From Acidobacteria bacterium RIFCSPLOWO2_02_FULL_61_28 (GTDB lineage Bacteria; Acidobacteriota; Terriglobia; 2-12-FULL-54-10), in NCBI GenBank assembly GCA_001767035.1, contig MEKR01000164.1:19298-83297 (forward strand): a stretch of 64,000 bases of DNA. Reading direction: 5' to 3'. Each line of letters opens with the position of its first letter. The stretch's first letter is position 1. This document shows positions 10,824 through 64,000 of the stretch, in pieces. The position numbers and the translations under genes were made by a program. The notes under the pieces were generated by a model. The model did not search any database. It worked only from the letters and a program-made list of their open reading frames with translations, and had not been told where the DNA came from.

Positions 10824-10895
10824 GGAAAGGAAACCCTGCCCGCTCCCTTACGGTCGCGGCTCGGATGAAATCGTTGTAAGGAAAGGCAACCGACC

Positions 10896-11996: not shown

Positions 11997-12098
11997 GAAA
12001 GCAGTGACGAGTGGGAAGTGACCCGTGACGAGAAAAGCAAATAGAAGCTCTCTGGTCACTCGTCACTCATCACTCATCACTTGTCACTGTCTTCCAAG
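11997..12098. repeat. Inverted pair of GTGACGA-heptamer arrays forming a long hairpin between the permease and ATPase genes. Possible REP-like element or terminator.
   Basis: Forward agtgacgagtgggaagtgacccgtgacgag ... reverse ggtcactcgtcactcatcactcatcacttgtcactg. Confidence 0.6.
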
Positions 12099-12101
12099 CC
12101 C

Positions 12102-21900: not shown

Positions 21901-22201
21901 GACGGTGGGCATGACCCCCGTTCCTTCAGCGCTACTTTCGCCAAACGCAAAACGAATTGGAATCAATAAACGCAATAATTCTCCTAATGGTTCCGTTATT
22001 CTGCGGATTGGGGACAATCTTCTGCATGAGCTGACCGGAGGCGAGCGCAGTCGCTTGGAAGCCGAGCTCAACGCGAGAATTTCGGAATTGTATGGACTTT
22101 CGACCCAAGATTTAGCAGTGCTGATGGAATATTATCGATTCATGCGCCCGCCAGCAAAAGAGCTTGATTTGCTCGAAGAAGCCGATTCGGATGATCTGTG
22201 A
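18986..22201 (+). CDS. MmeI-family type IIL restriction-modification enzyme. One 1071-aa polypeptide carries an N-terminal PD-(D/E)xK endonuclease, a gamma-class N6-adenine methyltransferase and a C-terminal TRD. Low-GC (~50%) island.
   Basis: Nuclease motif ...GKPD62SRLGALTFE71VK73 (D-x8-ExK; MmeI is D70-x9-E80xK82). MTase motif I IIDFCCGSGNFLIEI. Motif IV QYIVGNPPWVRIHN. ~300 aa of TRD follow. GC drop across 18900-22400. Confidence 0.8.
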   Translation: MADLSKSLAELAVLARTLRPEATLRQYFIQALDDYLKEANLFPIDPGPLFRLDERIIRGKPDSRLGALTFEVKLPKPRGQGLPAAIKQVCGYIDEYAQQSILVRGVAYDGESIALLNEQKEIIFEGQSPEGATLLCSWLTLLAPAAKTPEDMVNRFGSPSALSRNSIKMLYDLFVRFESEIPFIEEVFTIWKAVYGCAANINKETIQGLRKTGRELGITIKGKKEAEKFVFALETYLSILLKLLVARVAVEQKLIPQRYVFELICEPPGQEHLRYTKLSSFIPHLASVFEEDPFDWFIDAAKADKYAEANVRNTLRSVAESIDNIHLLQMGQDFLRVFYQHFFDTASRRALGEFYTNSDLVRKALDAVDYDGSVDKPIIDFCCGSGNFLIEILKRVKAKGKNRKSARLLGDIEKNVFGVDIHPLAVAMARVNFIIAVAPLLKRDYTFHVPVYWADSLVRLAAKKRSRKLDILGEPVKISVPGMKTFNLPDPDRFDWEGLFEFCRQHIGNIAGKADFNRVWQRFEQEYPREEILPFEDALKDFIAQLVDRRNSGRDTRWLPMLRNILLLERQKGKFQYIVGNPPWVRIHNIDEELRKRINEDFSFCADAGWERGCQLAGIGRGFARQTDLCVPFVERAFELLAPGGYFSFVITSKVQQALYANALRRELIQAKTLVRLSDYSLDPLPLFEGAVNYPLILSVRNQKPGSDSKCLVEVTNSQKEKRLFEVPQKELSLLGDDPESPWFMAPPEVVAVFRKMQADGEMLGEDDALRPRRGIMTAANDIYIITRVDPTESSKEVMVTTAGGAVVRIEKEMLRPLIRGRDLRPWGFTLAQGIIWTHDDQTAQPLQQLPTRAAEYFSDEKIIRTLKDREDYKTHLPIWSVFRAGPEKLSTKVCWKELANEMQATPLDKSYSFPHIGKRRLIPLHTAYLIPTETHDEAVLLAAIFNSVPFRAFVMAFAPRARGGYFRHFSWTVGMTPVPSALLSPNAKRIGINKRNNSPNGSVILRIGDNLLHELTGGERSRLEAELNARISELYGLSTQDLAVLMEYYRFMRPPAKELDLLEEADSDDL

Positions 22202-48499: not shown

Positions 48500-50023
48500 T
48501 CACTGACCTGCGGGTCCTGTCGCCGCCCCTGAGCCTTGTGCTACGGGCACGTTTAATGGGGTGGCGCCCAATTTGAGAAGCAGTTCCGCCGTACTCTTGT
48601 GGGTGACCCACGGTTCCCCGAGTGGCCGCCGCCCTCCCGGTGGTCCGCTGATATTAGGCTCGGCGATACGCAACGGCGTCTGTCCGAATTTATCCTTCAC
48701 GTCCAAATGGGCGCCCTTGTCCGCCAGGATTTGTACGATCGCGTCCGCTCCCGTGTAGGCTGCGGCGTGCAGCGCAGTCCAGCCGTTCTCGCCGACCACA
48801 TTGATGTCGGCACCCAGTTCTACCGCCAGTGTGACGGCTTCCAGCGCGCTCCTCTCCTCCTCCCCCTCCTTGCGGTCCTGGAACCGGCCCAATCCCGCCG
48901 CCACCATCAGCGGGGTTACATTTTTCTCCGTCGCCAGCAGGGGGTCGGCGCCGCCGGCCGCCAGGGCTCGCATGATGCTGAGATCGCCGGCTGCCGCTGC
49001 CAGCAAGAACGGCGTCGCGCCGACCAGGCTGATTCTGGACCCGGGAATTCGACAACAGAGGGGCAACGGCGGCGGCTCCTTCACGATCCGACCATTCGGA
49101 TTCGCCTTGTGTGCCAGGAGCGCCTTCACCAACTCCAGTGCGTTGGGCCGTTCCCAGTAGGGCGCAGGCAAGAAATCGGCGCCGCGGTTGGCGGAGATTT
49201 CTCTTTGCGTCTTGCCGCTGAGGGCTAGCAATCCTTTGGACACCGCAGAGTGCAACACGGTAATCCCGCTCGGGTCCGTTGCGTTGGGGTCCGCGCCCTT
49301 TTCCACTAGAAATATAGCGAGGGGCTCGTAGCCGCTCACGCTCGCCACCATCAAGGCGCTGCCGTCCGGCGTGGCGTCATTCACGTTCGCTCCCGCCGCC
49401 ACCAGGATTCGGGCAGAGTCCAGATCGCCCTGCTGGGCAGCAAACAGCAAGGGAGTAAAACCGCCGTTGGAACGGGCATTCACATCCGCTCCGTGCTCGA
49501 CGAGCGCCCGCACGGCCTCCGGGTGTTCTTGCCCCACCGCCCACATCAGAGCCGTCTGCCCCCGCCGGGTTTCCTTCGCGTTCGCGTCCGCTCCGTGGAC
49601 CAGCAATGCCTTCACCGCGCCCGCGTTTCCTGTGCGCGCGCACGTCATGAGCACGGTCTCGCCTTTCCATTTGGCGGCTTTCGGATCCGCCCCAGCCTTC
49701 AACAGCCTCTCGACCATGGCGGCGCTTCCGTTGGTGCAGGCCAGCGAGAGAGGCGTAACGCCGGAGTCGTTGGCCGCGTTGGCGTTGGCGCCGGCGCCGA
49801 TCAGCAGGTCCGCCGTTTCCAGATCATCCCGGTAGGCGGCCCAAGCCAGCGCCGTCGTACCATCCGCCTGGCGGGTATTCACGTCGGCACGCTGCTGGAG
49901 CAGGGAACGGACGGCTTCCTGGTCTCCTTGCTTGGCCGCCTCCACCAGCCCCAGGTCAGCGGCGGCGGCAAGGCTGGCGACTGACAGCAGACAGATCGTC
50001 CACCAGACATACCGCGCTTTCAT
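48500..50023 (-). CDS. Secreted ankyrin-repeat protein (about 12 ANK repeats). Paralog of 62589..end.
   Basis: Signal MKARYVWWTICLLSVASLAAA. Repeated ...G-TALM-AA--GH---V--LL--GADVNA-- units. Confidence 0.8.
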   Translation of the reverse strand: MKARYVWWTICLLSVASLAAAADLGLVEAAKQGDQEAVRSLLQQRADVNTRQADGTTALAWAAYRDDLETADLLIGAGANANAANDSGVTPLSLACTNGSAAMVERLLKAGADPKAAKWKGETVLMTCARTGNAGAVKALLVHGADANAKETRRGQTALMWAVGQEHPEAVRALVEHGADVNARSNGGFTPLLFAAQQGDLDSARILVAAGANVNDATPDGSALMVASVSGYEPLAIFLVEKGADPNATDPSGITVLHSAVSKGLLALSGKTQREISANRGADFLPAPYWERPNALELVKALLAHKANPNGRIVKEPPPLPLCCRIPGSRISLVGATPFLLAAAAGDLSIMRALAAGGADPLLATEKNVTPLMVAAGLGRFQDRKEGEEERSALEAVTLAVELGADINVVGENGWTALHAAAYTGADAIVQILADKGAHLDVKDKFGQTPLRIAEPNISGPPGGRRPLGEPWVTHKSTAELLLKLGATPLNVPVAQGSGAATGPAGQ

Positions 50024-50107
50024 TTCGATACCCATCCGCAGGGTTTCCTTTCCTTCCACTCCCGACGAAAACATCTCCGTAGTTCAACTGACGGAGCACT
50101 ACGGCAA

Positions 50108-51460
50108 CTATGCGACGGAAGGTAATTCGAGTTTTCCGGTGCTGTCGCCGAAGTTCTCCACGGGGACCCCGATCTTGTCCAGCACGGTCAAAAACAGATT
50201 CGCAATCGGCGTGCCCGGATAGCGGAGGTGACGGCCACCCTGGATCTGGCCCGCTTTCCCGCCCACCAGGAGGATGGGCAGGTTGTCCGGCTGATGCTTG
50301 TTGCCGTCGCTCAGGCTGCCGCCGCAGACGATTATGGTATGGTCGAGCAACGAGCCGTCGCCGTCCGGCGTAGCTCGCAGTCTCTCCAGGAAATACGCGA
50401 ACATCTTGGCATGATAGATGTTGATCTGGAGCACCTTCGCGATCTTCTCCTTATCGCCGGAGTGGTGAGTCAGCGGGTGGTGCGGATCGGCAATGCCGAT
50501 CTCGTTGTAGGTCCGGCCGCTGGTTTCGCGGCTCAGCATGAAGGTGATGACGCGGGTCAGGTCGGTCTGGTAGGCCAGCACTTGCAAATCAACCATGAGC
50601 TTGGCATGTTCCCAAAACGTGCCCGGGACGCCCACGGGCCGCTCGAGCGTCGGCAGTTCCCGCGAGGTTTGTTCCTCCGCCATCTGGATGCGCCGCTCGA
50701 CGTCGCGAATGGCATCCACGTACTCGGTGAGCTTCGCGCGGTCGCTCGGACCAAGTCCATGCATCAGGCGAGCCACACCTTCGGTCACCGAGTCGAGGAT
50801 GCTGCGGTTCTCCTGGAAGCGGGCGCGGCGCTCTGCCGGATCGGTGCTGTCAATGTCGCCGAACAGGCGCTCGAATACCAAGCGCGGCTGGTTTTCGACC
50901 GGCATCGGCGTCGTGGGACCGCGCCAGGAGAGCGTATTCAGGTAGGCGCAACTCCAGCCGGTTTCGCAGCCCCCGATCAGCTCGTTGGTGTCCAGGCCGA
51001 GTTCGAGCGACGCCAGTTGGGTGTGCTTGCCGAGAGCCTTCGCGGCGATCTGGTCCACCGAAACTCCCGCGCGGAAGTCGACGCCTTCCGTCTTCTTTGG
51101 GTGGACGCCCGTCAGGAACGCGGAAGAGGAGCGGGTGTGCGGTCCCGAGGATTCGTCCGGCAGCGCCAGAGCGGGTTTACTGGCGAACCCGCTCAGCACG
51201 AGAAGGCGATCCCGAAACGGGGCCAGCGGCTCCAGAATCGGAGTCAACTCGAACGCGGAGCCCTCCGTCGCCGGCGTCCATTTGTCCATGATGACGCCGT
51301 TCGCCAGGTAGACAACGGAGAAGCGGGTCGCCTGTAAGGCAGCCGTTTCCGCCGCCGCTGCGAATGCCGGGACCATTCCGTCCAGCAGCGGCAAAGCCAA
51401 GGTCGCACCCATTCCCCGCAAAAACGTCCGGCGCGGGATAGCACTCTTGAAATTCATCAT
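50108..51460 (-). CDS. DUF1501-family protein (sulfatase / alkaline-phosphatase-like fold) with a twin-arginine (Tat) signal.
   Basis: MMNFKSAIPRRTFLRGMGATLALPLLDGMVPAFAAAAE gives the Tat motif RRTFLRG. Body collinear with the paralog at 61124-62461. Confidence 0.8.
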   Translation of the reverse strand: MMNFKSAIPRRTFLRGMGATLALPLLDGMVPAFAAAAETAALQATRFSVVYLANGVIMDKWTPATEGSAFELTPILEPLAPFRDRLLVLSGFASKPALALPDESSGPHTRSSSAFLTGVHPKKTEGVDFRAGVSVDQIAAKALGKHTQLASLELGLDTNELIGGCETGWSCAYLNTLSWRGPTTPMPVENQPRLVFERLFGDIDSTDPAERRARFQENRSILDSVTEGVARLMHGLGPSDRAKLTEYVDAIRDVERRIQMAEEQTSRELPTLERPVGVPGTFWEHAKLMVDLQVLAYQTDLTRVITFMLSRETSGRTYNEIGIADPHHPLTHHSGDKEKIAKVLQINIYHAKMFAYFLERLRATPDGDGSLLDHTIIVCGGSLSDGNKHQPDNLPILLVGGKAGQIQGGRHLRYPGTPIANLFLTVLDKIGVPVENFGDSTGKLELPSVA

Positions 51461-51570
51461 GGCTTCCGATCCTTCCTCGTGCAAAACGGGCCTCGTGCGA
51501 AAACGGGCCTCGTGCGAAAACGGTCTGGCCTGAATCATGCCCCCGGTCAGTCCTCCGGTCAGCCCCTCCG

Positions 51571-54036
51571 TCAGCGAATTCCCGCGGCAGCCGTTTGCTC
51601 TGCCGGTTGTTCTGCTGATTTCCGCATCTGAAACGGCGCGCTCTTCACGATACCCAGAATGAGCGCCGACCAGCGATAGTCGCTCCGAGCGGCCTCCCGC
51701 GTGATCCTGCGGACCGCGGGAGCATCGTAATACTCGACTCCCCGGCCCAGGGCGTACGTAAGCAGTTTTTCGGTGATGGTCATTGCAAATTCTTCGGAAT
51801 GGCTCAGCAATATCTTGCGAAGCTCAGCCGCGCCCTGAAACTTGGCGCCGTCAGGGAGCGCCGCTGACACATCAATGGGGGTGTTGGCGTCGCCGCTGGT
51901 GGTCCGCCACTTACCGATCGCGTCAAAGTTTTCGAGCGCGAAGCCCAGCGGGTCCATCCGGTTATGGCAAACCCCGCAGGCGGGATTCGTGCGGTGCTGC
52001 TCCAGCCGCTGGCGCATGGTGAGGCGCTGGACGTCCTTGTTCTCCTGCAAGGAGGGAACATCGGGCGGTGGCGGCGGGAGCGGCGCGCCCAGAATGGTTT
52101 CCAGCACCCACTTGCCGCGCAGAGTCGGGGAGGTCCTGTTGGGATACGAGGTCACCGTCAGGATGCTGCCCTGGCCCACCAAGCCCATCCGCGTCTCATT
52201 GGGCAGCGTCACCCGCCGAAAGCGGCTGCCGTAAACATTCGGAATCCCGTAGTGGCGGGCGAGACGTTCGTTGACGAACGTATAATTTGCCCTCAACAAG
52301 TCCAGCACGCTGCGATCTTCCCGCAAGATGCTCTCAAAGAAAAGCTCCGTCTCCCGGCGGAAAGCCTCCCGCAGGTTCTCGTCGAAATCCGGAAACTCCT
52401 CCCCATCCGGCGCCACCAGGCGCATATTGCGCAGGTACAGCCACTGGCCGGCGAAATTGTCCACCAGCGCCTTGGAGCGCGCATCGGCGAGCATCCGCCG
52501 CACCTGCTGTTCCAGTACGGCAGGGTCTTTGAGCTTGCCCCGTTCGGCCAAGTCCAGGAGGGCGTCGTCGGGGATGCTGCTCCAGAGGAAGAACGACAAA
52601 CGGGAGGCCAGTTCGAGGTCGCTGATCCGGTGGGCGGCGCCGGGCGCCAGATTGGCCGGATCGCGTTCGATGCGGAACAGGAATTCCGGATCAACCAGGA
52701 TTCGTTGCAGCGCCATTTCAATTCCTGTTTCGAAGCCCCCCTTGCTCCGCCCGGCCTTGTAGAAGCTGAGCAGAATCTGGACGTCTCCATCCGTGACAGG
52801 CCGGCGATAGGCGCGACGCGCCAGCGTGGAGAGAATTTTCTTGGCGCAGGTGTCTTCCGCAGTGCTGCGGGCGCTGTCCCTGCCGCCGCTTGGGCGGCAC
52901 ACAAAAATCTTGCCGCGGCTCGACGTTTCCCCCGGCCCCCCGGCGTCGTAAGGCCCGCCGACAGCAACACTGGCCACGCCCGGGTCACCCGCCTTAAAGT
53001 TACTGAAGTCAGGGACCGGCAGTGGTCCGAGCACGCCTTCCGGCTGGAAGGCTTCCTTCAGGAAAGCGACCTGAACGAGCCGCGTCCCCGCCTTCGCCGG
53101 GAAGCGGACTTCTAACGCCGCGTCCGCCGTGAGCTGGTAAATCTGTTGTTCGGGGTCCGGCAGGCCGCCGTCAGAATAAAGGTTTGCCCACGTCTTGCCC
53201 TTGCGCTCACCGCCGACCGTGAACAGCTTGATTCGGGAGCCATCCAGCCGGACGTCGAGCTGGTGCGGCTCGGCGAGGCCGCGAATATCGTTGTTCCCGT
53301 TTCTTACCAGACTGACCTTGATGACATACTCGCCGTCGAGCGGGAAGTGATGGCGAATCGCCATTCCGCCGCGCGATCCGAACGGGAGATTCTCGCTCAT
53401 GTGGTCGTCCTGGATAATGAGAGGCTGGACATCATACTTCACGGTGATCGGACGGGCCGTGCGATCTCCAATGCTGAGGCGGCTGATCTTCCCTGCCGCT
53501 GCCATGTATCGTTCCAGCAGCGTCGGCGATACCGAGAGGACGTCCCCAATGTTGTCGAAACCGTAGCCCGAATCGTCGGCGGGAAGAAGCGCGGTGGCGT
53601 CAATATCCAGTGCCAGCAAGTCGCGGATCGCGTTGCTGTATTCGGCGCGGTTGAGGCGGTGGACCCCGGCTGGCCTGCCGGGATTCGGCTTCGCTGCCGC
53701 CGCGCGGTCGAGCGCCGTCTCCAGGTAGGTGGCGAAGGAGTCATATCCGGTCTTATCCGGCCGCGGAACGCCCGCCGGCGGCATCGCTTCGGTCCGCAGT
53801 TTCCGGACGACCTTTTCCCATGCCTCCGCCCCGGTGCTGACCTGTTCGACATCCATCTTGTCGAGCAGCAGTCCTGCCGTCTTCAGTCTCTCGTTGTGGC
53901 AGGTAACGCAGTAGCGATTCAGCAGCGCGCGCTGTTGCGAGGCGGGCGACGGGTTCACTGGCTCTTGCTTCGCTGCCGGAAGCCAACCGCCACTGGCCAG
54001 CCCGACTCCCAGCAAAGCCACGATCGTTCGCAACAT
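51571..54036 (-). CDS. PSD1-type protein (DUF1549/PSCyt2 N-terminal cytochrome-c-like domain plus DUF1553 C-terminal domain) with two CxxCH haem motifs.
   Basis: CVTCHNERLK near the N-terminus and CGVCHNRMDPLGFALENFD near the C-terminus. Signal peptide MLRTIVALLGVGLASGGW. Start chosen at the ATG conserved with the paralog (RBS GGAGGG - 9 nt - ATG). Confidence 0.8.
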   Translation of the reverse strand: MLRTIVALLGVGLASGGWLPAAKQEPVNPSPASQQRALLNRYCVTCHNERLKTAGLLLDKMDVEQVSTGAEAWEKVVRKLRTEAMPPAGVPRPDKTGYDSFATYLETALDRAAAAKPNPGRPAGVHRLNRAEYSNAIRDLLALDIDATALLPADDSGYGFDNIGDVLSVSPTLLERYMAAAGKISRLSIGDRTARPITVKYDVQPLIIQDDHMSENLPFGSRGGMAIRHHFPLDGEYVIKVSLVRNGNNDIRGLAEPHQLDVRLDGSRIKLFTVGGERKGKTWANLYSDGGLPDPEQQIYQLTADAALEVRFPAKAGTRLVQVAFLKEAFQPEGVLGPLPVPDFSNFKAGDPGVASVAVGGPYDAGGPGETSSRGKIFVCRPSGGRDSARSTAEDTCAKKILSTLARRAYRRPVTDGDVQILLSFYKAGRSKGGFETGIEMALQRILVDPEFLFRIERDPANLAPGAAHRISDLELASRLSFFLWSSIPDDALLDLAERGKLKDPAVLEQQVRRMLADARSKALVDNFAGQWLYLRNMRLVAPDGEEFPDFDENLREAFRRETELFFESILREDRSVLDLLRANYTFVNERLARHYGIPNVYGSRFRRVTLPNETRMGLVGQGSILTVTSYPNRTSPTLRGKWVLETILGAPLPPPPPDVPSLQENKDVQRLTMRQRLEQHRTNPACGVCHNRMDPLGFALENFDAIGKWRTTSGDANTPIDVSAALPDGAKFQGAAELRKILLSHSEEFAMTITEKLLTYALGRGVEYYDAPAVRRITREAARSDYRWSALILGIVKSAPFQMRKSAEQPAEQTAAAGIR

Positions 54037-54095
54037 TAGAGTATTCCCTCCCATTGCTGCCGAGCGGAGAAACCAGTGGACTGACAGTTGACTAC

Positions 54096-54154
54096 AGTAC
54101 CCGCCCTAGTTTGGTACTGGTAACCTTATAGAACAGCATGGTCGAGCAAGTCAA
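54096..54154 (-). promoter_or_regulatory. Promoter (-35 TTGACT, 18-nt spacer, -10 TATAAG) plus palindromic operator AGTACC-N11-GGTACT for the left PSD1-DUF1501-ankyrin operon.
   Basis: Mirror image of 58461-58519. Operator at 54096-54118. Confidence 0.55.
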
Positions 54155-54599
54155 GCAGAATCCTGGAAATTGCTCGGCCTCGACTTATCCTAGCCGCGGA
54201 GAACTCCGCAGCCCTCCCACCCGAAACGACATATTGATGTCGTTTCGGCTCCCGAACACACGCAGCCGCGCCAGAGGGATACCATCTTATTCCGTGTCCC
54301 ATTCCGCGACCGGATTTCGCTTGACCTGTCGTCGTCTCGTATGGTATCAGAGAAGCATCTATAGGGCGAGGTTAGTTTTGGAACGCGTTTGAGAGCGACT
54401 CATAACCTCGCTGGCGTTGAATAGGCGGAACCCATGCAAGAGCGAAGAGGCAATTAGTGGGTCCAATCTGTCTTTACTGGGTTCGCTGATTGTGACGGGC
54501 AGTCAGGTTGCCTCGGCGCAAGTGTTGGCTGATATCGGGGAGGATTGAGGACCCCTCGGGAGAAAGAAACGTTCAAACGTGCCGATTAAGGAGAACGCA

Positions 54600-56297
54600 A
54601 TGTTCAAAGCAGACCGCAAGGTTGTGATGTTGCTGGCAGCCCTGATCGTGGCGGGCACCGCGCTGTTCGCAGCAGGGGAGGAGCATACCGGTGTGATCAG
54701 CGGGATTGTGAAGAATGCTTCCGGCCAGGCGGCCTCGGGAGCTTACGTGAAGGCACGGAACGCAGAGCGCGGCCTGCTTTTCATGGTCGTCAGCCAGGAC
54801 CAGGGCAGTTACCGGCTCACAAATCTCCCGGCGGGGAACTATAAGGTCCAGGGTATTGGCGGTACCATGCAGAGCGATTCGGCTGCGACAGTCGTCGTTG
54901 CTTCCGGCAAGGAAGTATCGGCCAATCTCACGCTGAACGGCCCTCGGCCGGATCGGCCGAACGAACCTTGGCGTTCGACGGGACCTCCTCTGAACGATAA
55001 GGAGAGAGAAGCGTTAAAAGTTCATGAGAGCTGGCTTGCCGGCAGGGTTGCAAGCCAGGTGCCGGAAGGACCTGGCAAAGCGATTTTCACGTCCACGTGC
55101 AGTGTATGCCATAGTCTGCCGGTGAATGAGCGCGGCTCGCGGGAGGACTGGGCGGAAACAGTGGCCGATATGGTCGGCCGAGGCGCGAAGTTTCCGTCGG
55201 AGCAAGATAAGGAGACGTTGTTGAACTACCTCGCGGCGAATTTTGGGGAAGGGGTCCCCCGGAGTCCGCTGAACGCCGAGTCCCTTTGGTCCGGCCACTT
55301 GTCCAGGACTTTGCTAACCGGTGCACCGGCCAAATACAAGGTAGTGGAATCTGAGATTCCACCGGGCGCGGGCGCGCATGACGCCACCGTGGATCAGGAA
55401 GGGATTGCTTGGATGAACGACACGGCGGGCAACGGCATCGGCCGTTTTGATCCCAAGACATTGACTTACACGCGCGTTGTATTTCCGAAGGGAAAGACCG
55501 GTAAGCGCGCCCAGACGGTGGGGATTGAGGTGGATCCGAAGGGCCATGTCTGGATCATGGACGCCACCAACGAGCGCGTGCTGGAGTACGACCCCAGGAA
55601 CCAAAAATTTAACGAATACCTGAGCGACCAGATCGGTGGAGGAAACGCCTGGAACACGCTCCGGATTCTTCCCGATGGAACGGTCTGGGGGTCGGATGTG
55701 CGGCAGAACAAAGTGGTGAAGCTGAACCCCGCCACCAAGGAGTTCACTCTCTATCCGGTGCCTTCCGGCGTCCGCGAAAATAGAAGCGTGCGGCCCTACG
55801 GCATGGCGGTTGACGGAGCCGGGAAGCTCTGGTTTGCCCAGCAGGACACCAACCGGGTCGGCAAGATAGATCCCAAATCCGGGGAGATTGCGGAATTCCC
55901 GATGGCGGAGGTGGCCACTCGATCCGGCCGGCCCCGCCGGATGGCCACGGATTCCAAGGGCGACATCTGGCTGGCGGTCACGGAGGCGAACAAGCTCGTC
56001 CGATGGGATTTCCGCACCGACAAGTACACGATCTTTCCGCTTCCCACCGACGATGCCGGACCGTACGGCATTGATGTGGACACAAAACACGATCTGGTTT
56101 GGATCAGCACGGTAAGAGCGGACAAGCTATTCCGGTTTGATATCAAGACGAGTACGTTCATGGAATTCCATTTCCCAACCATGGATTCGTTCATCCGAAG
56201 AGTTAAGGTGGATCCTACGAATCCAAACCGGATTTGGTACTCCGGCGGCGGCAGCCGAAGCTACGACAAGGTTGGTTACGTGGAGGTTGTCGAGTAG
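54600..56297 (+). CDS. Secreted fusion protein: CarboxypepD_reg-like domain + mono-haem cytochrome c + Vgb-like (streptogramin-lyase-type) beta-propeller.
   Basis: Signal MFKADRKVVMLLAALIVAGTALFAA. GVISGIVKNASGQAASGAYVKARN...SYRLTNLPAGNYKV. CSVCH haem motif. Repeated ...G-iWf----n-i-r-dp-t--fte-p-p blocks. RBS AAGGAG. Confidence 0.7.
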   Translation: MFKADRKVVMLLAALIVAGTALFAAGEEHTGVISGIVKNASGQAASGAYVKARNAERGLLFMVVSQDQGSYRLTNLPAGNYKVQGIGGTMQSDSAATVVVASGKEVSANLTLNGPRPDRPNEPWRSTGPPLNDKEREALKVHESWLAGRVASQVPEGPGKAIFTSTCSVCHSLPVNERGSREDWAETVADMVGRGAKFPSEQDKETLLNYLAANFGEGVPRSPLNAESLWSGHLSRTLLTGAPAKYKVVESEIPPGAGAHDATVDQEGIAWMNDTAGNGIGRFDPKTLTYTRVVFPKGKTGKRAQTVGIEVDPKGHVWIMDATNERVLEYDPRNQKFNEYLSDQIGGGNAWNTLRILPDGTVWGSDVRQNKVVKLNPATKEFTLYPVPSGVRENRSVRPYGMAVDGAGKLWFAQQDTNRVGKIDPKSGEIAEFPMAEVATRSGRPRRMATDSKGDIWLAVTEANKLVRWDFRTDKYTIFPLPTDDAGPYGIDVDTKHDLVWISTVRADKLFRFDIKTSTFMEFHFPTMDSFIRRVKVDPTNPNRIWYSGGGSRSYDKVGYVEVVE

Positions 56298-56343
56298 ACC
56301 TTCCGTACAATGGCGGCGCGTTCCGGAGACTTCCTGCGCTGCC

Positions 56344-56898
56344 CTACCGTGCTCGCACCCAATCGGTGTACGGGATCATCGGTCCCCGGGACGAAGCAGA
56401 AGGAGGACCCTCTAATTGTAATGCGTCGCCCTTGAGGATGATCTTGTATGTCCGGTCAATTCCGTCCCAATTCGGCAAGATAGCCCGCTCCAGGTGCAAC
56501 GTAAGAATGTGGTCAGCCTCATTGACCGAGTAGGTGCCGAAAAAGGTTTCGGTGTTAAACACCGCGGCCGCGTTTTCCTCCGGTGTGCCTTCGCGACGCG
56601 CGCCCGATTTGAATTTCGGCCGGTTGGCGCCGATGACCTGGAAAGAATAGCGACCGGTCGAATCGAGCATTAAGCTGCCCTTTGTCCCCGGACCATACGG
56701 TTCCACCCTGCTGCCATCCGGCATTTTCATGTATTGGGAGCTGAGTGTCCAAGTTCCTGCGAGTTGCCGTTGCAGTGTTGCTGCCTGCTGCTGCCCGAAC
56801 GCCCTGGGCGCAAGAACGTTGCCCCCAAGAACCAGCAGTATCGCGATCCGGATGACTGCGCGGTTGGTACGCCGCCTATCTGCCAGCCAGCCTGTCAT
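56344..56898 (-). CDS. Lipocalin-like domain protein (secreted).
   Basis: Signal AVIRIAILLVLGGNVLAPRAFGQ. LAGTWTLSSQYMKMPDGSRVEPYGPGTKGSLMLDSTGRYSFQV is typical of the Lipocalin_5 family. Confidence 0.55.
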   Translation of the reverse strand: MTGWLADRRRTNRAVIRIAILLVLGGNVLAPRAFGQQQAATLQRQLAGTWTLSSQYMKMPDGSRVEPYGPGTKGSLMLDSTGRYSFQVIGANRPKFKSGARREGTPEENAAAVFNTETFFGTYSVNEADHILTLHLERAILPNWDGIDRTYKIILKGDALQLEGPPSASSRGPMIPYTDWVRAR

Positions 56899-56955
56899 GC
56901 GCCCCCCCCGAAGAAGATAGACTTTCCCGCCTGCTCGATTCAAATCGTAACACAT

Positions 56956-58278
56956 TTACTGTCCTGCGGAAGTCTTCCAATAGGCGGGCAAATTCGGTTT
57001 GGTGTCGCGCAGAATCTCCAGCACGGCGCGGCGATCCTCCGCCGACAGGCGCGCAAACCTTCTGCTGGTATCCCTGCCGGTCAGTACATCATAGAGCTTT
57101 CGGTAAATCCCGTCCCGGGCGATATCCGGGATGCTGTCGAAGGCGGAGCTATAAATCATATAGCTCAGCGGATAGCGGAAGAGTCTCTTCTGAAGATCGA
57201 ACTCACGGAGCGAGCGGCCTTGCAGATCGCGCGGCCCGCGCTGCGGAAAAGTTTTCGTGAACGCCGAGACGCCCTGAATCGGCGACCGAATCGGCGCTTC
57301 GTCCGCAAAAAGCAGGTAGGTCACAAATTCGGCGATGTCGGAATCGAGCCGGTCTCGAAACTCCTCCAGCTTTTGTTCTGCGGCGGCAACGCGCGTTTCC
57401 CAGCCGATCCGCGTGATCAGGTTGGTCATTCGTGTCTGATGCTCCAACGTCATCAGCGCGACGATATCGCTGGTCGGGGCCAGATAGGCGGACGTATTCA
57501 GTCTCTCAGCAAGACTGGTTAGATTTTGGCTTGGCAGCTCGGACGCGAACGGCCTTCCAAAAACGTCCAAAGGGACGTTTCCCCTGTGCCGGATCGTGCC
57601 GTGCAATCCGGTCACATACCAACCGCCCCAGCGGTCCTCCAAAGGGATGCGATGGTCGGTGGCGAACGCTCCGGCGCGTCTGGACGGAGAACTCGGGTCG
57701 GCCGGGGATACCGAACTGAGCACGAGGCCCGGAACGTTCAATGTTGCCGGGATCAGGTGGCACTGCAGGCAGCTCATTTCCTGGCGGCTGAAGCTTGGTC
57801 CATCGGACTTCTCGACATCCAGGGTATAGAAGATCATTCCTTGCTGGGGGTCCAGTGAGGCCAGTTCCAGCGCCCGGCCACCCTGCACATACCCCACCGA
57901 TACCTCGTCATTGAAGTAAATCGCGCGGGGGGTGCCTGGGGAAATCTGAGAGATTTGCGCGCTCGTTTTCGAAAAGACCAGAAGCTGCGAATCGCTGTTG
58001 ATTCCGAGGTGCTTCAGGACACTCGGCAAATATCCCCACCGGGGATGGAATTCCAGTTTCACCTCGCCGTTTTCCATCTGCTTCTGCAAACGGGCGACGG
58101 GATCATCCGCGGAACGCTCCGCATACTGGATGGCCTTGTGATCGAACGGGATCGAGGGGAAGTCGGGATTGTCGTCATGGCCCTGCAAAGCCCAAACAGT
58201 TCCGGTCAGGATCAGACTGGCGGTTGCCAGCAGGGCCAAGCGTCGCTTTTGCGTTCGGTTTGCCGGCAGTAAGATCAT
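56956..58278 (-). CDS. Secreted c-type cytochrome-like protein (single CxxCH), family unassigned.
   Basis: MILLPANRTQKRRLALLATASLILTGTVWA signal; CLQCH motif mid-protein. No further recognisable motifs. Confidence 0.5.
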   Translation of the reverse strand: MILLPANRTQKRRLALLATASLILTGTVWALQGHDDNPDFPSIPFDHKAIQYAERSADDPVARLQKQMENGEVKLEFHPRWGYLPSVLKHLGINSDSQLLVFSKTSAQISQISPGTPRAIYFNDEVSVGYVQGGRALELASLDPQQGMIFYTLDVEKSDGPSFSRQEMSCLQCHLIPATLNVPGLVLSSVSPADPSSPSRRAGAFATDHRIPLEDRWGGWYVTGLHGTIRHRGNVPLDVFGRPFASELPSQNLTSLAERLNTSAYLAPTSDIVALMTLEHQTRMTNLITRIGWETRVAAAEQKLEEFRDRLDSDIAEFVTYLLFADEAPIRSPIQGVSAFTKTFPQRGPRDLQGRSLREFDLQKRLFRYPLSYMIYSSAFDSIPDIARDGIYRKLYDVLTGRDTSRRFARLSAEDRRAVLEILRDTKPNLPAYWKTSAGQ

Positions 58279-58460
58279 GATCGTATCGCCATGATAGCTC
58301 ATCGCAGCCGCAAAACTTCCTGAGATCCCGCGGGCGAAAGCCAATTACATACGAGCCATGATTCCCGTCTTGGAATCCCGGGCAGGTCGAAGTATACACC
58401 AGACTGCCTTGAACTCGGGTTTTTCAACAAACTGCCCGGTCTGAAACGGGTGTTTATTGC

Positions 58461-58519
58461 TTGACATGTTTGAGTAGCATGTTCTATAAGGTTATCAGTA
58501 CCAAACTAGGGCGGGTACT
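58461..58519 (+). promoter_or_regulatory. Promoter (-35 TTGACA, 18-nt spacer, -10 TATAAG) plus palindromic operator AGTACC-N11-GGTACT for the right PSD1-DUF1501-ankyrin operon.
   Basis: ttgacatgtttgagtagcatgttctataaggttatcagtaccaaactagggcgggtact. Operator at 58497-58519. ~80 nt 5'UTR to the ATG at 58579. Confidence 0.55.
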
Positions 58520-58578
58520 TTATTCGGCTATCAGTCTTCTAGTTGCTCCGCTCGGCTGCAAAGGGAGTGAATACTCTA

Positions 58579-61053
58579 ATGTTGCGAACGATCGTGGCTT
58601 TGCTTGCAATCGGGCTGGCCAGTGGCGGCTGGCTTCAGGTGGCCAGGCAAGAGCCGTCAAACCCGTCGCCCGCCTCGCAACAGCGCGCGCTGCTGAATCG
58701 CTACTGCGTTACTTGCCACAACGATAGACTGAAGACGGCAGGACTGCTGCTCGACAAGGTGGATGTCGAACAGGTCAGCGCCGCGGCGGAGGTATGGGAA
58801 AAGGTCGTCCGGAAACTGCGGACCGAAGCCATGCCGCCGGCGGGCGTTCCGCGGCCGGATAAAGCCGGATATGACTCCTTCGCCACCTACCTGGAGACGG
58901 CGCTCGACCGCGCGGCGGCAGCGAAACCGAATCCCGGCAGGCCAGCCGGGGTCCACCGCCTCAACCGCGCCGAATACAGCAACGCGATCCGCGACTTGCT
59001 GGCACTGGAAATTGACGCCAACGCGCTCCTTCCCGCCGACGAAGAGAGCCACGGCTTTGACAACAATGGGGACGTCCTCTCGGTATCGCCGTCGCTGCTG
59101 GAAAGATATGTGATAGCATCCCGGAAGATCAGTCTCCTCGCCCTCGGAGATCCCGCGATCAGTCCGGGCGTCGCGAAGTACGATGTCCCCACGCGGTTGA
59201 TTCAAGAAGACCGCATGAGCGAAGACCTGCCCTTCGGGTCGCGCGGCGGAATGGCGATTCGCCACCACTTTCCAATGGATGGCGAGTATGTCATCAAAAT
59301 CAGCCTACTAAGAAACGCTACTGGTTCTATCCTCGGCCTCGCCGAGCCGCACGACCTTGACGTCCGGCTGGATGGCTCCCGGATCAAGCGGTTTACGGTC
59401 GGTGGCGCCTTCAAGCTCGATTTGTCGGGACCAACTCCGGAGGAAGTTTATCGGCCAAACCCGGAACGAGCGAAGCGAGAGGAATATGAGCAGACCTCCG
59501 ATAAGGCGCTAGAAATCCGCTTTCCGGCGAAGGCGGGTACGCGGCTCGTGGGAGTCGCTTTTGTGAACGATGGCTCGGCCCCCGAAGATATCCTGCGGTC
59601 ACGTCTCCCGGCCTTTGCTTTCAACAATTACAGGGAGGGTTCCCCTGCCGTGGCCAGTGTCTCGATCGGCGGCCCTTACAACGCAACCGGAGCAGGGGAC
59701 ACACCGAGCCGGCGCAAGGTCTTGGTGTGCCGTCCCACCGGCGCTCCGGGCAGCGCCCGCGGCAATGACGAAGCCACTTGCGCCCGCACGATTCTCTCCA
59801 CGCTGGCGCGTCGCGCGTATCGCCGGCCCCCCACCGACGAAGACATTCAGACTCTGCTCAGCTTCTACCAAGTTGGCTCCCAGAAGGGAGGCTTTGAAGC
59901 AGGGATCGGGATGGCGCTGCGAGGAATACTGGTCAGTCCAGATTTCGTATTCCGCATCGAACGCGATCCGGCCAATCTGGCGCCGGGCGCCGCCTATCCG
60001 ATCACCGACCTGGAACTGGCCTCCCGTTTGTCGTTCTTCCTCTGGAGCAGCATCCCCGACGACACACTCCTAGACTTGGCCGAACGGGGCAAGCTCAAAG
60101 ACCCTGCGGTACTGGAACAGCAGGTGCGGCGGATGCTCGCCGATTCGCGCTCGAAGGCGCTGGTGGACAATTTCGCCGGACAGTGGCTGTACCTGCGCAA
60201 TGTGGGCGCGAAATCCCCGGAACCAGCGGCGTTTCCTGAATTCGACGACAGCTTGCGGGAGGCATTCCAGCAGGAAACGGAGCTTTTCTTTGAAAGCATG
60301 CTGCGCGAAGATCGCAGCGTGGTGAATTTGTTGAATGCAGACTATACGTTTCTGAATGGACGTCTGGCGCGGCACTACGGGATTCCGAACATTTACGGAA
60401 GCCATTTCCGGCGCGTGACATTGAGCGATGACCTGCGGAGAGGCCTGCTGGGCCAGGGGAGCATCCTGATGGTGACGTCCTATGCCACGAGGACTTCCCC
60501 GGTTACGCGCGGCAAGTGGTTGCTGGAACAGGTCCTGGGCGCGCCGCCCCCACCGCCGCCCGCAAACGTCCCGGCATTGAAGGATGCCGGCGCGGACGGC
60601 AAGCCGCAGTCCGTGCGCCAGAGGATGGAGCAGCACCGCGCCAATCCCGTCTGCGCCGGTTGCCACGCGCGAATGGACCCGCTGGGCTTCTCGCTCGAGA
60701 ACTTTGACGGCATCGGCCGGTGGCGCACCATGGAGAGCAACGCTCCGATTGATCCGTCCGGAGTGCTCCCTGACGGCACCAAGTTTCAGGGCCCGGCCGG
60801 GCTTCGCAAGATTTTGCTGGACCATCCCGAACGGTTTGTCACGACCGTTACCGAAAAACTTCTCACCTACGCCCTGGGGCGGGGAGTGGAATACTACGAT
60901 CAGCCGGCCATCCGCACGATCCTGCGGGAAGCTGCTCGCAGCGAATACCGCTGGTCGTCGCTCATTTTGGGGATTGTGAAGAGCACGCCGTTTCAGATGA
61001 GAGCGTCCGCGGAGCAAACGCCGGAGCGAACGGCTGCCGCGGGTCTTCGCTGA
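58579..61053 (+). CDS. PSD1-type protein (DUF1549/PSCyt2 + DUF1553), two CxxCH haem motifs. Paralog (~85-90% aa identity) of 51571-54036.
   Basis: CVTCHNDRLK and CAGCHARMDPLGFSLENFD. Signal MLRTIVALLAIGLASGGW. RBS GGGAGTG - 9 nt - ATG. Confidence 0.8.
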   Translation: MLRTIVALLAIGLASGGWLQVARQEPSNPSPASQQRALLNRYCVTCHNDRLKTAGLLLDKVDVEQVSAAAEVWEKVVRKLRTEAMPPAGVPRPDKAGYDSFATYLETALDRAAAAKPNPGRPAGVHRLNRAEYSNAIRDLLALEIDANALLPADEESHGFDNNGDVLSVSPSLLERYVIASRKISLLALGDPAISPGVAKYDVPTRLIQEDRMSEDLPFGSRGGMAIRHHFPMDGEYVIKISLLRNATGSILGLAEPHDLDVRLDGSRIKRFTVGGAFKLDLSGPTPEEVYRPNPERAKREEYEQTSDKALEIRFPAKAGTRLVGVAFVNDGSAPEDILRSRLPAFAFNNYREGSPAVASVSIGGPYNATGAGDTPSRRKVLVCRPTGAPGSARGNDEATCARTILSTLARRAYRRPPTDEDIQTLLSFYQVGSQKGGFEAGIGMALRGILVSPDFVFRIERDPANLAPGAAYPITDLELASRLSFFLWSSIPDDTLLDLAERGKLKDPAVLEQQVRRMLADSRSKALVDNFAGQWLYLRNVGAKSPEPAAFPEFDDSLREAFQQETELFFESMLREDRSVVNLLNADYTFLNGRLARHYGIPNIYGSHFRRVTLSDDLRRGLLGQGSILMVTSYATRTSPVTRGKWLLEQVLGAPPPPPPANVPALKDAGADGKPQSVRQRMEQHRANPVCAGCHARMDPLGFSLENFDGIGRWRTMESNAPIDPSGVLPDGTKFQGPAGLRKILLDHPERFVTTVTEKLLTYALGRGVEYYDQPAIRTILREAARSEYRWSSLILGIVKSTPFQMRASAEQTPERTAAAGLR

Positions 61054-61123
61054 GCTAGTCTTCGCTGAGAAGGCACGGAGGATTCAGGCCCAACCAGTTT
61101 CATGCGAGGAGAGATAGGAAGCC

Positions 61124-62461
61124 ATGATGATTTTCAAGAAGGCGATCCCGCGCCGGACGTTTCTGCGGGGCGTGGGTGCGACCTTGGCGTTGCCGCTGCT
61201 GGACGGAATGGTTCCGGCGTTCGCCGCGGCGGCGGACACGGGCAAAGCCCCGGTCCGTATGTCGTTCGTCTACGTTCCGTGCGGGATCATGATGGAGGAG
61301 TGGACGCCGGAGACGGAGGGGGCCGGGTTCGAGTTTACTCCGACTTTGAAAGGTCTGGCTCCTTTTCGGGATCATCTCGTTGTGCTGAGCGGACTGACCC
61401 ACAATGAAGGCCGGATTGGGCCGGGCGAAAGCGCGGGAGACCATCCGCGCGCCGGCGCCACCTATCTGACGGGAGTCCACCCGGCGATGGGCAAAGAGGC
61501 CCGCGTGGGAATCTCGGTGGACCAGGTCGCGGCGGCGGAACTCGGCAAGCAAACGCAACTGGCATCGCTCGAACTCGCCATGGAGGCCACCGTAGTGGGC
61601 GCCTGCGAAAGCGGCTGGAGCTGCGCCTACCAGAACACGCTCTGCTGGCGCAGCGCCACGACGCCGCTCCCGACGGAGCACCATCCGCGCGTGATCTTCG
61701 AACGCCTCTTCGGAGACAGTGACAGCACGGACCCGGCAGCGCGGCTCGCGCGGCTCCAGGCTGATCGCAGCGTTCTCGACCTGGTGACCCAGCCGCTGGG
61801 CCGCCTCCTGAAGGATATCGGGCCGGGCGACCGCGTCAGGCTCACCGAGTACCTCGACGCCATTCGCGATGCCGAGCGGCGCATCCAGCTTGCCGAGAAA
61901 CAAGCTTCCCGGGAGGTGCCCTCGTTTGATCGGCCGACCGGCGTTCCGCCCACCTATGAAGAACATGCCAAGTTAATGTTCGATCTGCAGACGCTGGCGT
62001 ACCAGACCGACCTGACCCGCGTCATCACCTTCATGCTGGGCTTCGAACAAAGCACGCTGGCCTACCGGGAGATCGGCGTCACCGATCCGCACCACCCCCT
62101 GACGCATCACCAGCTCGATCGCGACAAGATCGCGAAGGTAATCAAGATCAATCTGTTTCACATCAAGCTGTTCGCGTATTTCCTGGAGAAGCTGCGCTCT
62201 ACGCCGGACGGCGACGGCTCCCTGCTCGACCATTCGATGATCGTTTACGGCAGCAGCCTGAGTGACGGCAACATCCATGCCCATAACAACCTGCCGATCC
62301 TCTTGCTGGGCGGGGGATACCAGATCAAGGGGGGCCGTCACATCCGGTTTCCCAACGAAACACCGTTGATGAATCTGTTCTTGACCATGCTCGATAAGCT
62401 GGGGATTCCCGTGGAGAAGCTCGGCGACAGCACCGGAAAGCTCGAACTGCCGTCAGTGTAG
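61124..62461 (+). CDS. DUF1501-family protein with Tat signal. Paralog of 50108-51460.
   Basis: MMIFKKAIPRRTFLRGVGATLALPLLDGMVPAFAAAAD. Collinear with the paralog, including ...HHPLTHH...LPILLLGG.... Confidence 0.8.
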   Translation: MMIFKKAIPRRTFLRGVGATLALPLLDGMVPAFAAAADTGKAPVRMSFVYVPCGIMMEEWTPETEGAGFEFTPTLKGLAPFRDHLVVLSGLTHNEGRIGPGESAGDHPRAGATYLTGVHPAMGKEARVGISVDQVAAAELGKQTQLASLELAMEATVVGACESGWSCAYQNTLCWRSATTPLPTEHHPRVIFERLFGDSDSTDPAARLARLQADRSVLDLVTQPLGRLLKDIGPGDRVRLTEYLDAIRDAERRIQLAEKQASREVPSFDRPTGVPPTYEEHAKLMFDLQTLAYQTDLTRVITFMLGFEQSTLAYREIGVTDPHHPLTHHQLDRDKIAKVIKINLFHIKLFAYFLEKLRSTPDGDGSLLDHSMIVYGSSLSDGNIHAHNNLPILLLGGGYQIKGGRHIRFPNETPLMNLFLTMLDKLGIPVEKLGDSTGKLELPSV

Positions 62462-62588
62462 ATGCGGGTCGCGGACTTGCGCCACGGGCGCAGAACTTCG
62501 CCGCGCCAACAGGCACGGCCGGTCCAGAACGCTGGGCCTTGGTTTCGCGGCCGATTTTCCGGGATTTTTCGGAAGGGAGCGACGAAGA

Positions 62589-64000
62589 TGGGTTTCAACG
62601 TGAGCGGTCTGAGTGTCTGGTGGATGGCATCTCTCTTGTCAGTCGCCAGCCTTGCCGCCGCCGCCGATCTTCGGCTGGTGGAGGCGGCCAAGCAGGGAGA
62701 CAAGCAGGCCGTGCGCTCCCTGGTGAAGCAGCGTGCGGATGTAAACGCCGCGGAAGCCGATGGCGCGACGGCGCTGGCCTGGGCGGTCCACCGGGATGAT
62801 CTGGAAACGGGGGAGCTTCTGCTGGGCGCCGGGGCCCGGGTGAACGCGGCGAACGAATATGGCGTAACCCCGCTCTCGCTGGCCTGCACCAACCGAAGCG
62901 CGGCCATGGTGGACCGGCTGCTCAAGGCCGAGGCGAATCCGAACGCGGCCCAGCAGACCGGGGAAACTCTGCTCATGACCTGCGCCCGCACAGGGAACGT
63001 GGACGCGGTGAAATCGTTGCTGGCCCGCGGAGCGGACGTAAACGCGAAGGGGGGACGGCGGGGGCAGACGGCTCTGATGTGGGCGGTCTCGGAAAAACAC
63101 CTGGAGATTGAGGGCGTTTTGATCGAGCGCGGAGCGGATGTCAATGCCCGTTCGGAGAGCGGTTTCACGCCCCTCCTGTTTGCGGCCCGAGTGGGCGATC
63201 TGGACTCCGCCCGGACCTTGCTCCAAGCGGGAGCGAATGTGAATGCGGCCACCGAGTTCGGTGTGAGCCCGCTCTTGGAAGCGAGCGGCAGCGGGCACGA
63301 GGCGCTTGCAATCTTCCTGCTCGAAAAGGGCGCGAATCCGAACGCCGCCGACGGAAATGGGGTGACCGCTCTGCACTACGCGGTGCAGAAAGGAATCTCC
63401 ATCCTCCAAACCACGACCTGCGGCCCTAACATCGCGGCGTACAATGCCTACCGTTGCCGGTCGAACATGCTGGAACTGGTGAAGGCGCTCCTGGCGCAGG
63501 GAGCCGATCCCAACGCCCGGCTCGTGAGAGAACCGGGACGGACCGGCGGCGGAACGGGGCGGTCCATCACGGGCCGGGTGGGCGCAACGCCGTTATTGCT
63601 GGCAGCCACAACCGTAGATGTCAATATCATGCGCGCCTTGCTGGCCGCCGGCGCCGATCCGTCGGTGGGGAATTTTGAGGACACCACCCCGCTGATCGTG
63701 GCGGCGGGGATGGGCCGGGTCTCGGATCGCACGCCGGAGGAGGAGAGCAGCGCCCTGGAAGCCGTCAAACTGCTGGTGGTGGAGGCGCGTGTTGACGTCA
63801 ATCAAACCGACAAGAACGGCCAGACCCCGCTGCACGGCGCGGCCTACCGGGGATCGGACGCCATCGTTCAGTTCCTGGTGGACAAGGGCGCCAAGCTAGA
63901 CGTGGTGGATCGGTTCGGACAGTCCCCCTTGATTATCGCGGAGTACCTGATGACGCCGGAAATACTGAAGAACCGGGATCGAAGGCCGCGCATCCTCCAC
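62589..64000 (+). CDS. Secreted ankyrin-repeat protein, partial (runs off the window end). Paralog of 48500-50023.
   Basis: MGFNVSGLSVWWMASLLSVASLAAAADLRLVEAAKQGDKQAVRSLVKQRADVNAAEADGATALAWAV... Not in the ORF track because there is no stop inside the window. Confidence 0.75.

Follow-up and report, generated by a model that had tools for sequence, protein, structure and literature searches.

The DNA considered here, referred to below as the window, is a stretch of 64,000 nucleotides (nt) of contig MEKR01000164.1 (positions 19,298-83,297 of the forward strand) in assembly GCA_001767035.1 of Acidobacteria bacterium RIFCSPLOWO2_02_FULL_61_28. Its last part holds two three-gene arms in inverted orientation. 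Each encodes a large multidomain protein of the DUF1592 family, a DUF1552 protein and an ankyrin-repeat protein, and between the arms lies a core of three further genes (Table 1). The explanation favoured on balance for the locus, mechanism included, is that the arms are two anciently diverged copies of a conserved, multi-copy three-gene module of the periplasm.

The Locus

A repeat search found 14 inverted repeat pairs, 74-88% complementary, that connect 48659-54157 to 58458-63943. When one arm was compared with the other by blastn, identity was 77.3% over 4072 nt and 72.3% over 1366 nt. The innermost arms are 4300 nt apart, and the sequence of the spacer is unique. A preliminary description of this DNA had reported two inverted, paralogous three-gene arms around a unique core of about 4.3 kb; both observations were borne out, and the open reading frames (ORFs) match those listed there.

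Table 1. Features of the two arms and of the core between them, in window coordinates (aa, amino acids)
Feature	Position	Strand	Score or remark
Ank-L, 507-aa ankyrin-repeat protein, third gene of the left triad	48500..50023	-	Ank_2 212.6, Ank 196.4 bits
DUF1552-L, 450 aa, Tat signal, predicted alkaline-phosphatase-superfamily fold	50108..51460	-	PF07586 328.6 bits
PSD-L, 821-aa DUF1592-family multidomain protein, CxxCH at 43 and 687	51571..54036	-	
Left promoter and 5' leader, common to the right arm; palindrome at 54096-54118	54037..54157	-	arm reaches 54157
Core1, 565 aa, CarboxypepD_reg, CxxCH segment and Vgb-lyase/SGL-type beta-propeller	54600..56297	+	
Lipocalin_5-domain protein, signal-like N-terminus	56344..56898	-	PF13924 63.9 bits
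Core3, 440 aa, large unnamed family, invariant CxxCH	56956..58278	-	
Right promoter and 5' leader; palindrome at 58497-58519	58458..58578	+	
PSD-R, 824-aa paralog of PSD-L, CxxCH at 43 and 692	58579..61053	+	same five PSD/PSCyt3 domains
DUF1552-R, 445-aa paralog, Tat signal	61124..62461	+	PF07586 307.5 bits
Ank-R, ankyrin paralog running past the window end	62588..64000	+	Ank_2 238.2 bits; 504 aa in sister contig L087 (8686-10200)

Proteins of the Triad

In both copies of the large protein, Pfam recognised PSD3 (DUF1587), PSD5 (DUF1595), PSD4 (DUF1592), PSCyt3 (DUF1588) and PSD2 (DUF1585), in this order and all above the gathering score. PSCyt1 is borderline at a cut-off of 22 bits (23.4 bits in PSD-R, 21.8 in PSD-L), and Cytochrome_CBB3 scores of 22-25 bits lie below its cut-off of 27. 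The family name given earlier, PSD1, has to be replaced by this set of domains, since there was no match to PSD1/DUF1553 or PSCyt2 at E ≤ 0.01. The two CxxCH motifs noted earlier were confirmed. In 29 homologs they do not vary (C43/C46/H47 and C687/C690/H691), nor does M85-P86-P87 after the first motif, and the second site falls inside PSCyt3/DUF1588, a domain above its cut-off. A hydrophobicity heuristic points to a signal-like segment at the N-terminus. According to the structural model, the protein of about 820 aa is composed of an N-terminal c-type cytochrome domain, a beta-sandwich resembling a carbohydrate-binding module (CBM), a helical DUF1595/DUF1592 region, and a second haem site in PSCyt3. 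A distant DUF1592 protein of 536 aa from Sphingobium herbicidovorans pMSHV (L091, 6370-10516) is without the N-terminal cytochrome and beta-sandwich part.

Both copies of the second protein cover the full 307-position model of PF07586 (DUF1552/HXXSHH), for which the gathering threshold is 30 bits. It had been assigned to DUF1501 before; among 22 DUF1552 sequences, Pfam gave no DUF1501, Sulfatase or Phosphodiest signal at E ≤ 10. HPLTHH occupies residues 328-333, and the pattern H..[ST]HH recurs in 119 of 120 homologs. The invariant motifs of the family are its own and are rich in His and Asp (HxxTHH, DGDG, SDGNxH); Cys165, Cys171 and many other His and Asp residues are likewise invariant in the alignment. 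The twin-arginine (Tat) signal mentioned in the preliminary description is well founded: RRxFL is present in 120 of 120 homologs, both window copies read RRTFLRG, and R10 and R11 are invariant. The Pfam TAT_signal model matched weakly (best E 0.015). We infer from the motif that the DUF1552 protein is exported by the Tat pathway. Its structural model contains an alpha/beta core of the alkaline-phosphatase superfamily, with which Foldseek concurs, and this predicted fold assignment appears to be new.

The third protein, with some 12 ankyrin repeats, belongs to a family of about 500 aa, for which more than 7,900 matches were found at 55-63% identity over at least 95% of the length. In 25 aligned orthologs a hydrophobic N-terminus followed by a small-x-small pattern is conserved. 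The export signal claimed earlier for the ankyrin proteins is borne out to the extent that this heuristic finds signal-like hydrophobic segments, which are consistent with Sec-dependent secretion.

Conservation of the Triad

The DUF1552 alignment was searched against one genome per GTDB species. The best 80 loci, with 53-67% DUF1552 identity, were kept, and their neighbourhoods were scored by tblastn with the window proteins. The hosts are mostly Acidobacteriota (Vicinamibacterales, Bryobacterales, Terriglobia and Blastocatellia); the remainder are, by label, Longimicrobiales, Micropepsaceae, Gammaproteobacteria and Acidimicrobiia metagenome-assembled genomes. In 76 of the 80 loci the gene immediately 5' of DUF1552 is the large gene. 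An ankyrin ortholog is found within 1 kb of this pair in 70, either downstream and co-directional (35 loci), upstream and divergent (25), or upstream and co-directional (10). Among the other ten loci, five have the ankyrin gene elsewhere, four are truncated, and one is without it. When the question was put from the ankyrin side, the pair was present in five of six independent contexts. The preliminary description had proposed a fixed, secreted ankyrin partner and had staked this proposal on conservation of the ankyrin gene beside the pair, which is what these counts show.

The stop codon of the large gene overlaps the start of DUF1552 in 16 of 23 measurable pairs, which argues for translational coupling and for a complex; the two proteins probably form a stoichiometric one. 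A full triad with 47.5% DUF1552 identity was found in a cultured organism, Novosphingobium sp. KACC 22771, on the 1.3-Mb megaplasmid NZ_CP117882.1 (L088, at about 943.5-948.3 kb). A cultured host that carries the triad appears to be new. The ankyrin gene of this locus is seemingly shorter, tblastn coverage extending over about 350 aa only.

At more distant pairs, with 27-33% DUF1552 identity, the ankyrin gene is absent, as seen in Planctomyces SH-PL62, Chondrinema litorale and Sphingobium herbicidovorans. The genes that follow 3' of these pairs are DUF1080 in Planctomyces, nothing related in Chondrinema, and cytochrome c and cytochrome b in Sphingobium. The Sphingobium genes, a cytochrome c gene and one with a cytochrome b/b6 domain, stand directly after DUF1592 and DUF1552 (L091), and this neighbourhood suggests a link to a membrane electron-transport chain. 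Only one clade of the pair, found in Acidobacteriota, Gemmatimonadota and some Proteobacteria, has the ankyrin third partner. In the searchable literature the two-gene pair alone was found described, with its function stated as unknown, and no ankyrin third partner was found. The conserved, clade-specific partner appears to be new; the pair itself was already known as an orphan.

The most frequent additional neighbours are pyrroloquinoline quinone (PQQ)-dependent dehydrogenases (PF01011), which score up to 649 bits. Their 28 ORFs are spread over 22 of the 80 loci (L009, L013, L024, L028, L031, L047, L060, L077, L084 and 13 more), a raw count without a genome-wide background. Often they stand directly beside the ankyrin gene, and L009 has two of them in the interval from DUF1552 to that gene. 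None was present among the scanned ORFs of the window. In another locus (L094, 4555-6875) the large gene and DUF1552 are broken into several short ORFs beside an intact ankyrin ortholog; the split ORFs could be frameshifts of a long-read assembly or a sign of pseudogenisation.

Proposed Function

The descriptive part of our account, namely the conserved triad, its families, folds and export signals and the incidental layout discussed below, is held with high confidence. The mechanistic part is tentative. It assigns to DUF1552 the role of a metal-dependent catalytic subunit, which would act on an organic substrate in the periplasm. The large protein would position the substrate by means of its beta-sandwich and would carry electrons, through two c-type haems, between DUF1552 and the respiratory chain. 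The ankyrin protein, by analogy with AnkB and KatB, might serve as a protein-protein adaptor or as an assembly factor for the haem subunit. Counted in favour of a redox role are the cytochrome c and b genes of Sphingobium, the PQQ dehydrogenases in 22 of 80 loci, and nearby propeller-cytochrome fusions. It is unlikely that the triad is an obligate three-subunit periplasmic enzyme of an undescribed kind, in which metalloenzyme chemistry on an alkaline-phosphatase-type fold would be coupled to electron transfer by c-type haems and the ankyrin protein would be needed for assembly or for recruitment of a substrate or partner. Such an enzyme might, for example, cleave or modify organic esters or oligosaccharides oxidatively and feed the respiratory chain, and a function would be gained for an orphan gene pair whose expansion in Acidobacteriota and in the Planctomycetes-Verrucomicrobia-Chlamydiae (PVC) bacteria is among the largest.

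Several observations weigh against the proposed mechanism. Confidence in both structural models is modest, with predicted local distance difference test (pLDDT) scores of 61.6 and 63.5 and predicted template modelling (pTM) scores of 0.64 and 0.54. The modelled beta-sandwich is matched as a generic jelly roll, TNF and C1q domains being among the matches. The PDB was searched by sequence profile with DUF1552, the large protein and Core3, without a meaningful match for any of them; the best E was 0.095, to ribosomal protein L11. No component of the triad has a characterised homolog. The formylglycine nucleophile motif of type I sulfatases, C/S-x-P/A-x-R, was column-consistent in none of 22 aligned sequences and matched 7 of 120 in scattered, chance fashion, and no active site could be mapped for DUF1552. 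In the window the large gene and DUF1552 do not overlap, the intergenic gap being 110 nt in the left arm and 70 nt in the right. Neither the position nor the strand of the ankyrin gene is constant, and it is not always in the same operon. Counts of PQQ dehydrogenases and of TonB-type outer-membrane proteins lack a background, and both families are very abundant in Acidobacteriota. Finally, the formation of a complex, the attachment of haem and export are steps that we infer.

The main alternative, which we consider improbable but not negligible, is that the pair is an ester hydrolase or transferase, acting on phospho-, sulfo- or phosphono-esters for nutrient scavenging, with no redox catalysis. 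The ankyrin protein would then be a chaperone, and the haem protein an anchor, a sensor or a maturation factor, as exemplified by MauG in the oxidative maturation of an active-site residue. Other secreted phosphatases use Tat export. The modelled fold of DUF1552 is nearest to sulfatases, ENPPs and phosphonate monoester hydrolases, and the invariant Cys165 and Cys171 with many invariant His and Asp residues are compatible with such an activity. Sulfatase genes, moreover, often neighbour PSCyt genes (He et al., PMC5615132). Against it stand the missing nucleophile motif and the lack of Sulfatase, Phosphodiest and DUF1501 signals described above. The two invariant haem sites, the Sphingobium cytochromes and the PQQ-dehydrogenase neighbours point instead to electron flow, and no genes of phosphate, sulfur or phosphonate regulons are nearby in the window.

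The Mirror Layout and the Core

The preliminary description regarded the mirrored triads and the 4.3-kb core as one integrated periplasmic redox-hydrolytic system in which the inversion itself would be functional. The redox-hydrolytic flavour of that proposal fits the invariant haem motifs and the predicted alkaline-phosphatase-superfamily fold; the integration with the core is unsupported, and such a system is very unlikely. It has been largely refuted by the survey, as the following comparisons indicate.

Core1 matches Vgb_lyase (99.6 bits), SGL (50 bits) and CarboxypepD_reg (48 bits) in Pfam. The cytochrome c domain claimed for it comes down to a CSVCH motif at residue 167 and to cytochrome profile matches that are not significant (E 0.1-0.19). 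Relatives of Core1 recur near triads in seven loci, L014 (39% identity), L043, L045, L068, L084, L092 and L093, and NHL propellers flank the tandem triads of L002 and also occur in L055. These recurrences speak for integration, but Core1-type genes are a minority, present in about 5-8 of some 90 contexts, and Core1 is an occasional neighbour of the triad with no fixed part in it. In L093 (2952-6467) the Core1-type propeller gene is divergent from the ankyrin gene, with one small ORF between them, and it is followed by a sulfite-oxidase-like molybdoenzyme gene (Oxidored_molyb and Mo-co_dimer) and a small cytochrome c gene. The CxxCH segment of Core1 in the window matches the SorB cytochrome subunit below threshold (E 0.0078).

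The other two core genes have no counterparts at the surveyed loci, tblastn having found relatives of the lipocalin in 0 of 80 and of Core3 in 0 of 80. In L004-L006 (9001-11225) a full-length ankyrin ortholog without the DUF1592/DUF1552 pair is convergent with a gene of Lipocalin_5, the family of the core lipocalin, which is a further point in favour of a connection. Core3 had no Pfam, NCBIfam or PDB match. Its family comprises 3,837 cluster representatives at E ≤ 1e-3 and 940 at E ≤ 1e-30, with C170/C173/H174, H231 and H280 invariant. These proteins probably constitute a family of mono-haem cytochromes not described before. The core products have hydrophobic, signal-like segments at their N-termini by the same heuristic as the large protein.

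A common regulatory element could tie the arms together. The 23-nt sequence AGTACCAAACTAGGGCGGGTACT, an AGTACC-N11-GGTACT palindrome, is identical in both arms and lies directly 3' of a -10-like box in both large-gene promoters. The window has no further occurrence, the chance expectation being 0, and the element might act as an operator through which the two copies are co-regulated. It is confined to this organism: among 87 fetched loci it was present only in the sister contig L087, which weighs against a general role in such a system. The candidate promoters (TTGACw-18-TATAAG) were read by hand and were not flagged by a consensus promoter and terminator scan, the sites of which were no commoner than in shuffled sequence. 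No RNA family was recognised by Rfam at 48-64 kb.

Besides single triads, clusters of them are common. Their members can be tandem (L002/L003, L043), convergent (L008, L084) or divergent (L023), every geometry being represented, and the genes that intervene differ from cluster to cluster. Moreover, the left DUF1552 copy is less close to its paralog than to 118 of 120 foreign homologs; for the right copy the figure is 38 of 120. Since foreign orthologs are as close as, or closer than, the paralog, the arms are old paralogs. The mirror layout and the core are incidental, the core genes being neighbours rather than obligate parts, and the arrangement should not be treated as a system.

The age of the arms also bears on the suggestion, in our judgment most improbable, that a segment was recently duplicated in inverted form or that the assembly is chimeric here, in which case the second copy would hold no independent information. 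The identity of 85-90% reported earlier for the proteins is too high; 73.5% was measured for the large protein, 65.8% for DUF1552 and 63.1% for the ankyrin protein. Synonymous divergence (dS) between left and right genes is 0.44-0.66, and the ratio of nonsynonymous to synonymous divergence (dN/dS) is 0.38-0.46, which indicates purifying selection on both copies and hence that both are maintained. Long stretches of identical DNA, said to include the promoter, were likewise overstated, the longest exact run common to the arms being 83 nt. Two patches are unusually similar: the first 150 or so codons of the large gene (90-97% of nucleotides), and about 120 nt from the TTGAC box to the ATG (about 85-88%), just 5' of which the similarity of the arms ends abruptly. 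A recent origin would be favoured by the likeness of these 5' 450 nt and leader, put at 90-97% when taken together, and by another assembly, in which the contig breaks exactly at this patch. The divergence of the remainder, the closer foreign orthologs and the maintenance of both copies argue otherwise. L087, an independent contig in ENA from a strain of 99.6% identity, extends in the same orientation across the right arm and the core and reaches 44 codons into the left large gene; because it spans the head-to-head junction, the junction is no artefact of the present assembly. The layout would have come about by an old duplication or a second insertion, after which the promoter and some 150 codons at the 5' end of the large gene would have become locally homogenised. 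For this similar 5' patch, local gene conversion or a shared regulatory constraint is the preferred reading.

That the ankyrin protein is a eukaryote-directed effector or part of an anti-phage defence, adjacent to the pair by chance, is scarcely credible: NCBIfam models of Legionella Dot/Icm Ank effectors and of MzaA do match it, as do PDC-M72A and Ankyrin in PADLOC, but the best of these NCBIfam scores, 119-135 bits, face cut-offs of 600-800, NCBIfam scores overall (20-135 bits against cut-offs of 50-1400) denote generic repeats, PADLOC matched the ankyrin protein alone and none of the other five proteins, the N-terminal segments point to the periplasm, and adjacency in 70 of 80 loci is beyond chance.

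Relation to Known Systems

The Planctomycete-specific domains to which the large protein belongs were reportedly first defined by Studholme et al. in 2004. Pairs of a PSCyt3/DUF1592-family protein with DUF1552, and of PSCyt2/PSD1 with DUF1501, have been presented side by side (He et al., 2017; PMC5615132). The triad agrees with the first of these pairs in Pfam architecture, in the position of DUF1552 directly downstream, and in the lack of an assigned function. It differs in that the clade of the window, down to about 47% DUF1552 identity, adds a near-constant third gene for a secreted ankyrin protein of about 500 aa, missing from the Planctomyces, Chondrinema and Sphingobium pairs, and in that its hosts are mostly Acidobacteriota and not PVC bacteria. 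The PSCyt2/PSD1 (DUF1549/DUF1553) and DUF1501 pair follows a parallel logic, a multidomain protein with haem motifs followed by a functionally unassigned protein with a Tat signal, and has undergone massive expansion in the same phyla. It is made up of other Pfam families, and none of PSD1, PSCyt2 and DUF1501 was matched in the window proteins.

Members of the alkaline-phosphatase superfamily, among them type I sulfatases, ENPPs, phosphonate monoester hydrolases and the phosphoethanolamine and lipoteichoic acid (LTA) transferases, share 6-14% sequence identity with DUF1552, which is without C/S-x-P-x-R and without a Pfam match to any member and has motifs of its own instead. Cbp2D of Cellvibrio japonicus is a modular secreted protein with a CBM, c-type cytochromes and DUF1587 (PSD3), and its X183 cytochrome domain reduces lytic polysaccharide monooxygenases (LPMOs) (PMC8981238). 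It resembles the large protein in joining a CBM-type module, c-type cytochrome domains and DUF1587 in one chain. In contrast, Cbp2D lacks DUF1592, DUF1588 and DUF1585 and has no DUF1552 or ankyrin partner, and its LPMO client is absent at the window locus.

Ankyrin proteins have been linked to haem enzymes before. The periplasmic ankyrin protein AnkB of Pseudomonas aeruginosa, in work by Howell et al. in 2000, and the ankyrin protein Cj1386 of Campylobacter jejuni, in work by Flint and Stintzi in 2015, are reportedly required by the catalases KatB and KatA, respectively, for full activity or for the delivery of haem. The likeness is that an ankyrin-repeat protein is encoded beside a haem enzyme or haem protein. 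Those proteins are small and their partners are catalases, whereas here the protein has about 500 aa and 12 repeats, its partners are a c-type cytochrome and a protein predicted to have the alkaline-phosphatase fold, and the association is one of gene neighbourhood. No catalase was found in the window or the surveyed loci, where the partner of the ankyrin protein is the DUF1592/DUF1552 pair.

The DUF1592/DUF1552 pair and its sister, PSD1/DUF1501, count among the orphan genes with the greatest expansion in Acidobacteriota, Planctomycetota and Verrucomicrobiota. Four new handles offer ways to test the function of the former pair: the ankyrin partner, the predicted alkaline-phosphatase-superfamily fold, the invariant haem motifs and the cultured Novosphingobium host. 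Together they make genetics, pull-downs and enzymology feasible.

Neighbouring Genes

In L087, which extends past the end of the window, Ank-R is followed on its 3' side (10610-12631) by three tandem paralogs of about 180-190 aa with weak matches to the glyoxalase/VOC fold, one of which has a weak Tat-like match at its N-terminus. Beyond them lie an SDR gene, a DHDPS-family gene and an MFS sugar transporter gene. The wider window is Acidobacteriota-like, with CarboxypepD_reg/OMP_b-brl_4 receptors and BNR/sortilin, SBBP and Kelch proteins. At 18986-22201 (+), and unrelated to the triads, it encodes a fused restriction-modification methylase of the Eco57I/MmeI type with 1071 aa (Eco57I 72.4 bits, N6_Mtase 41 bits).

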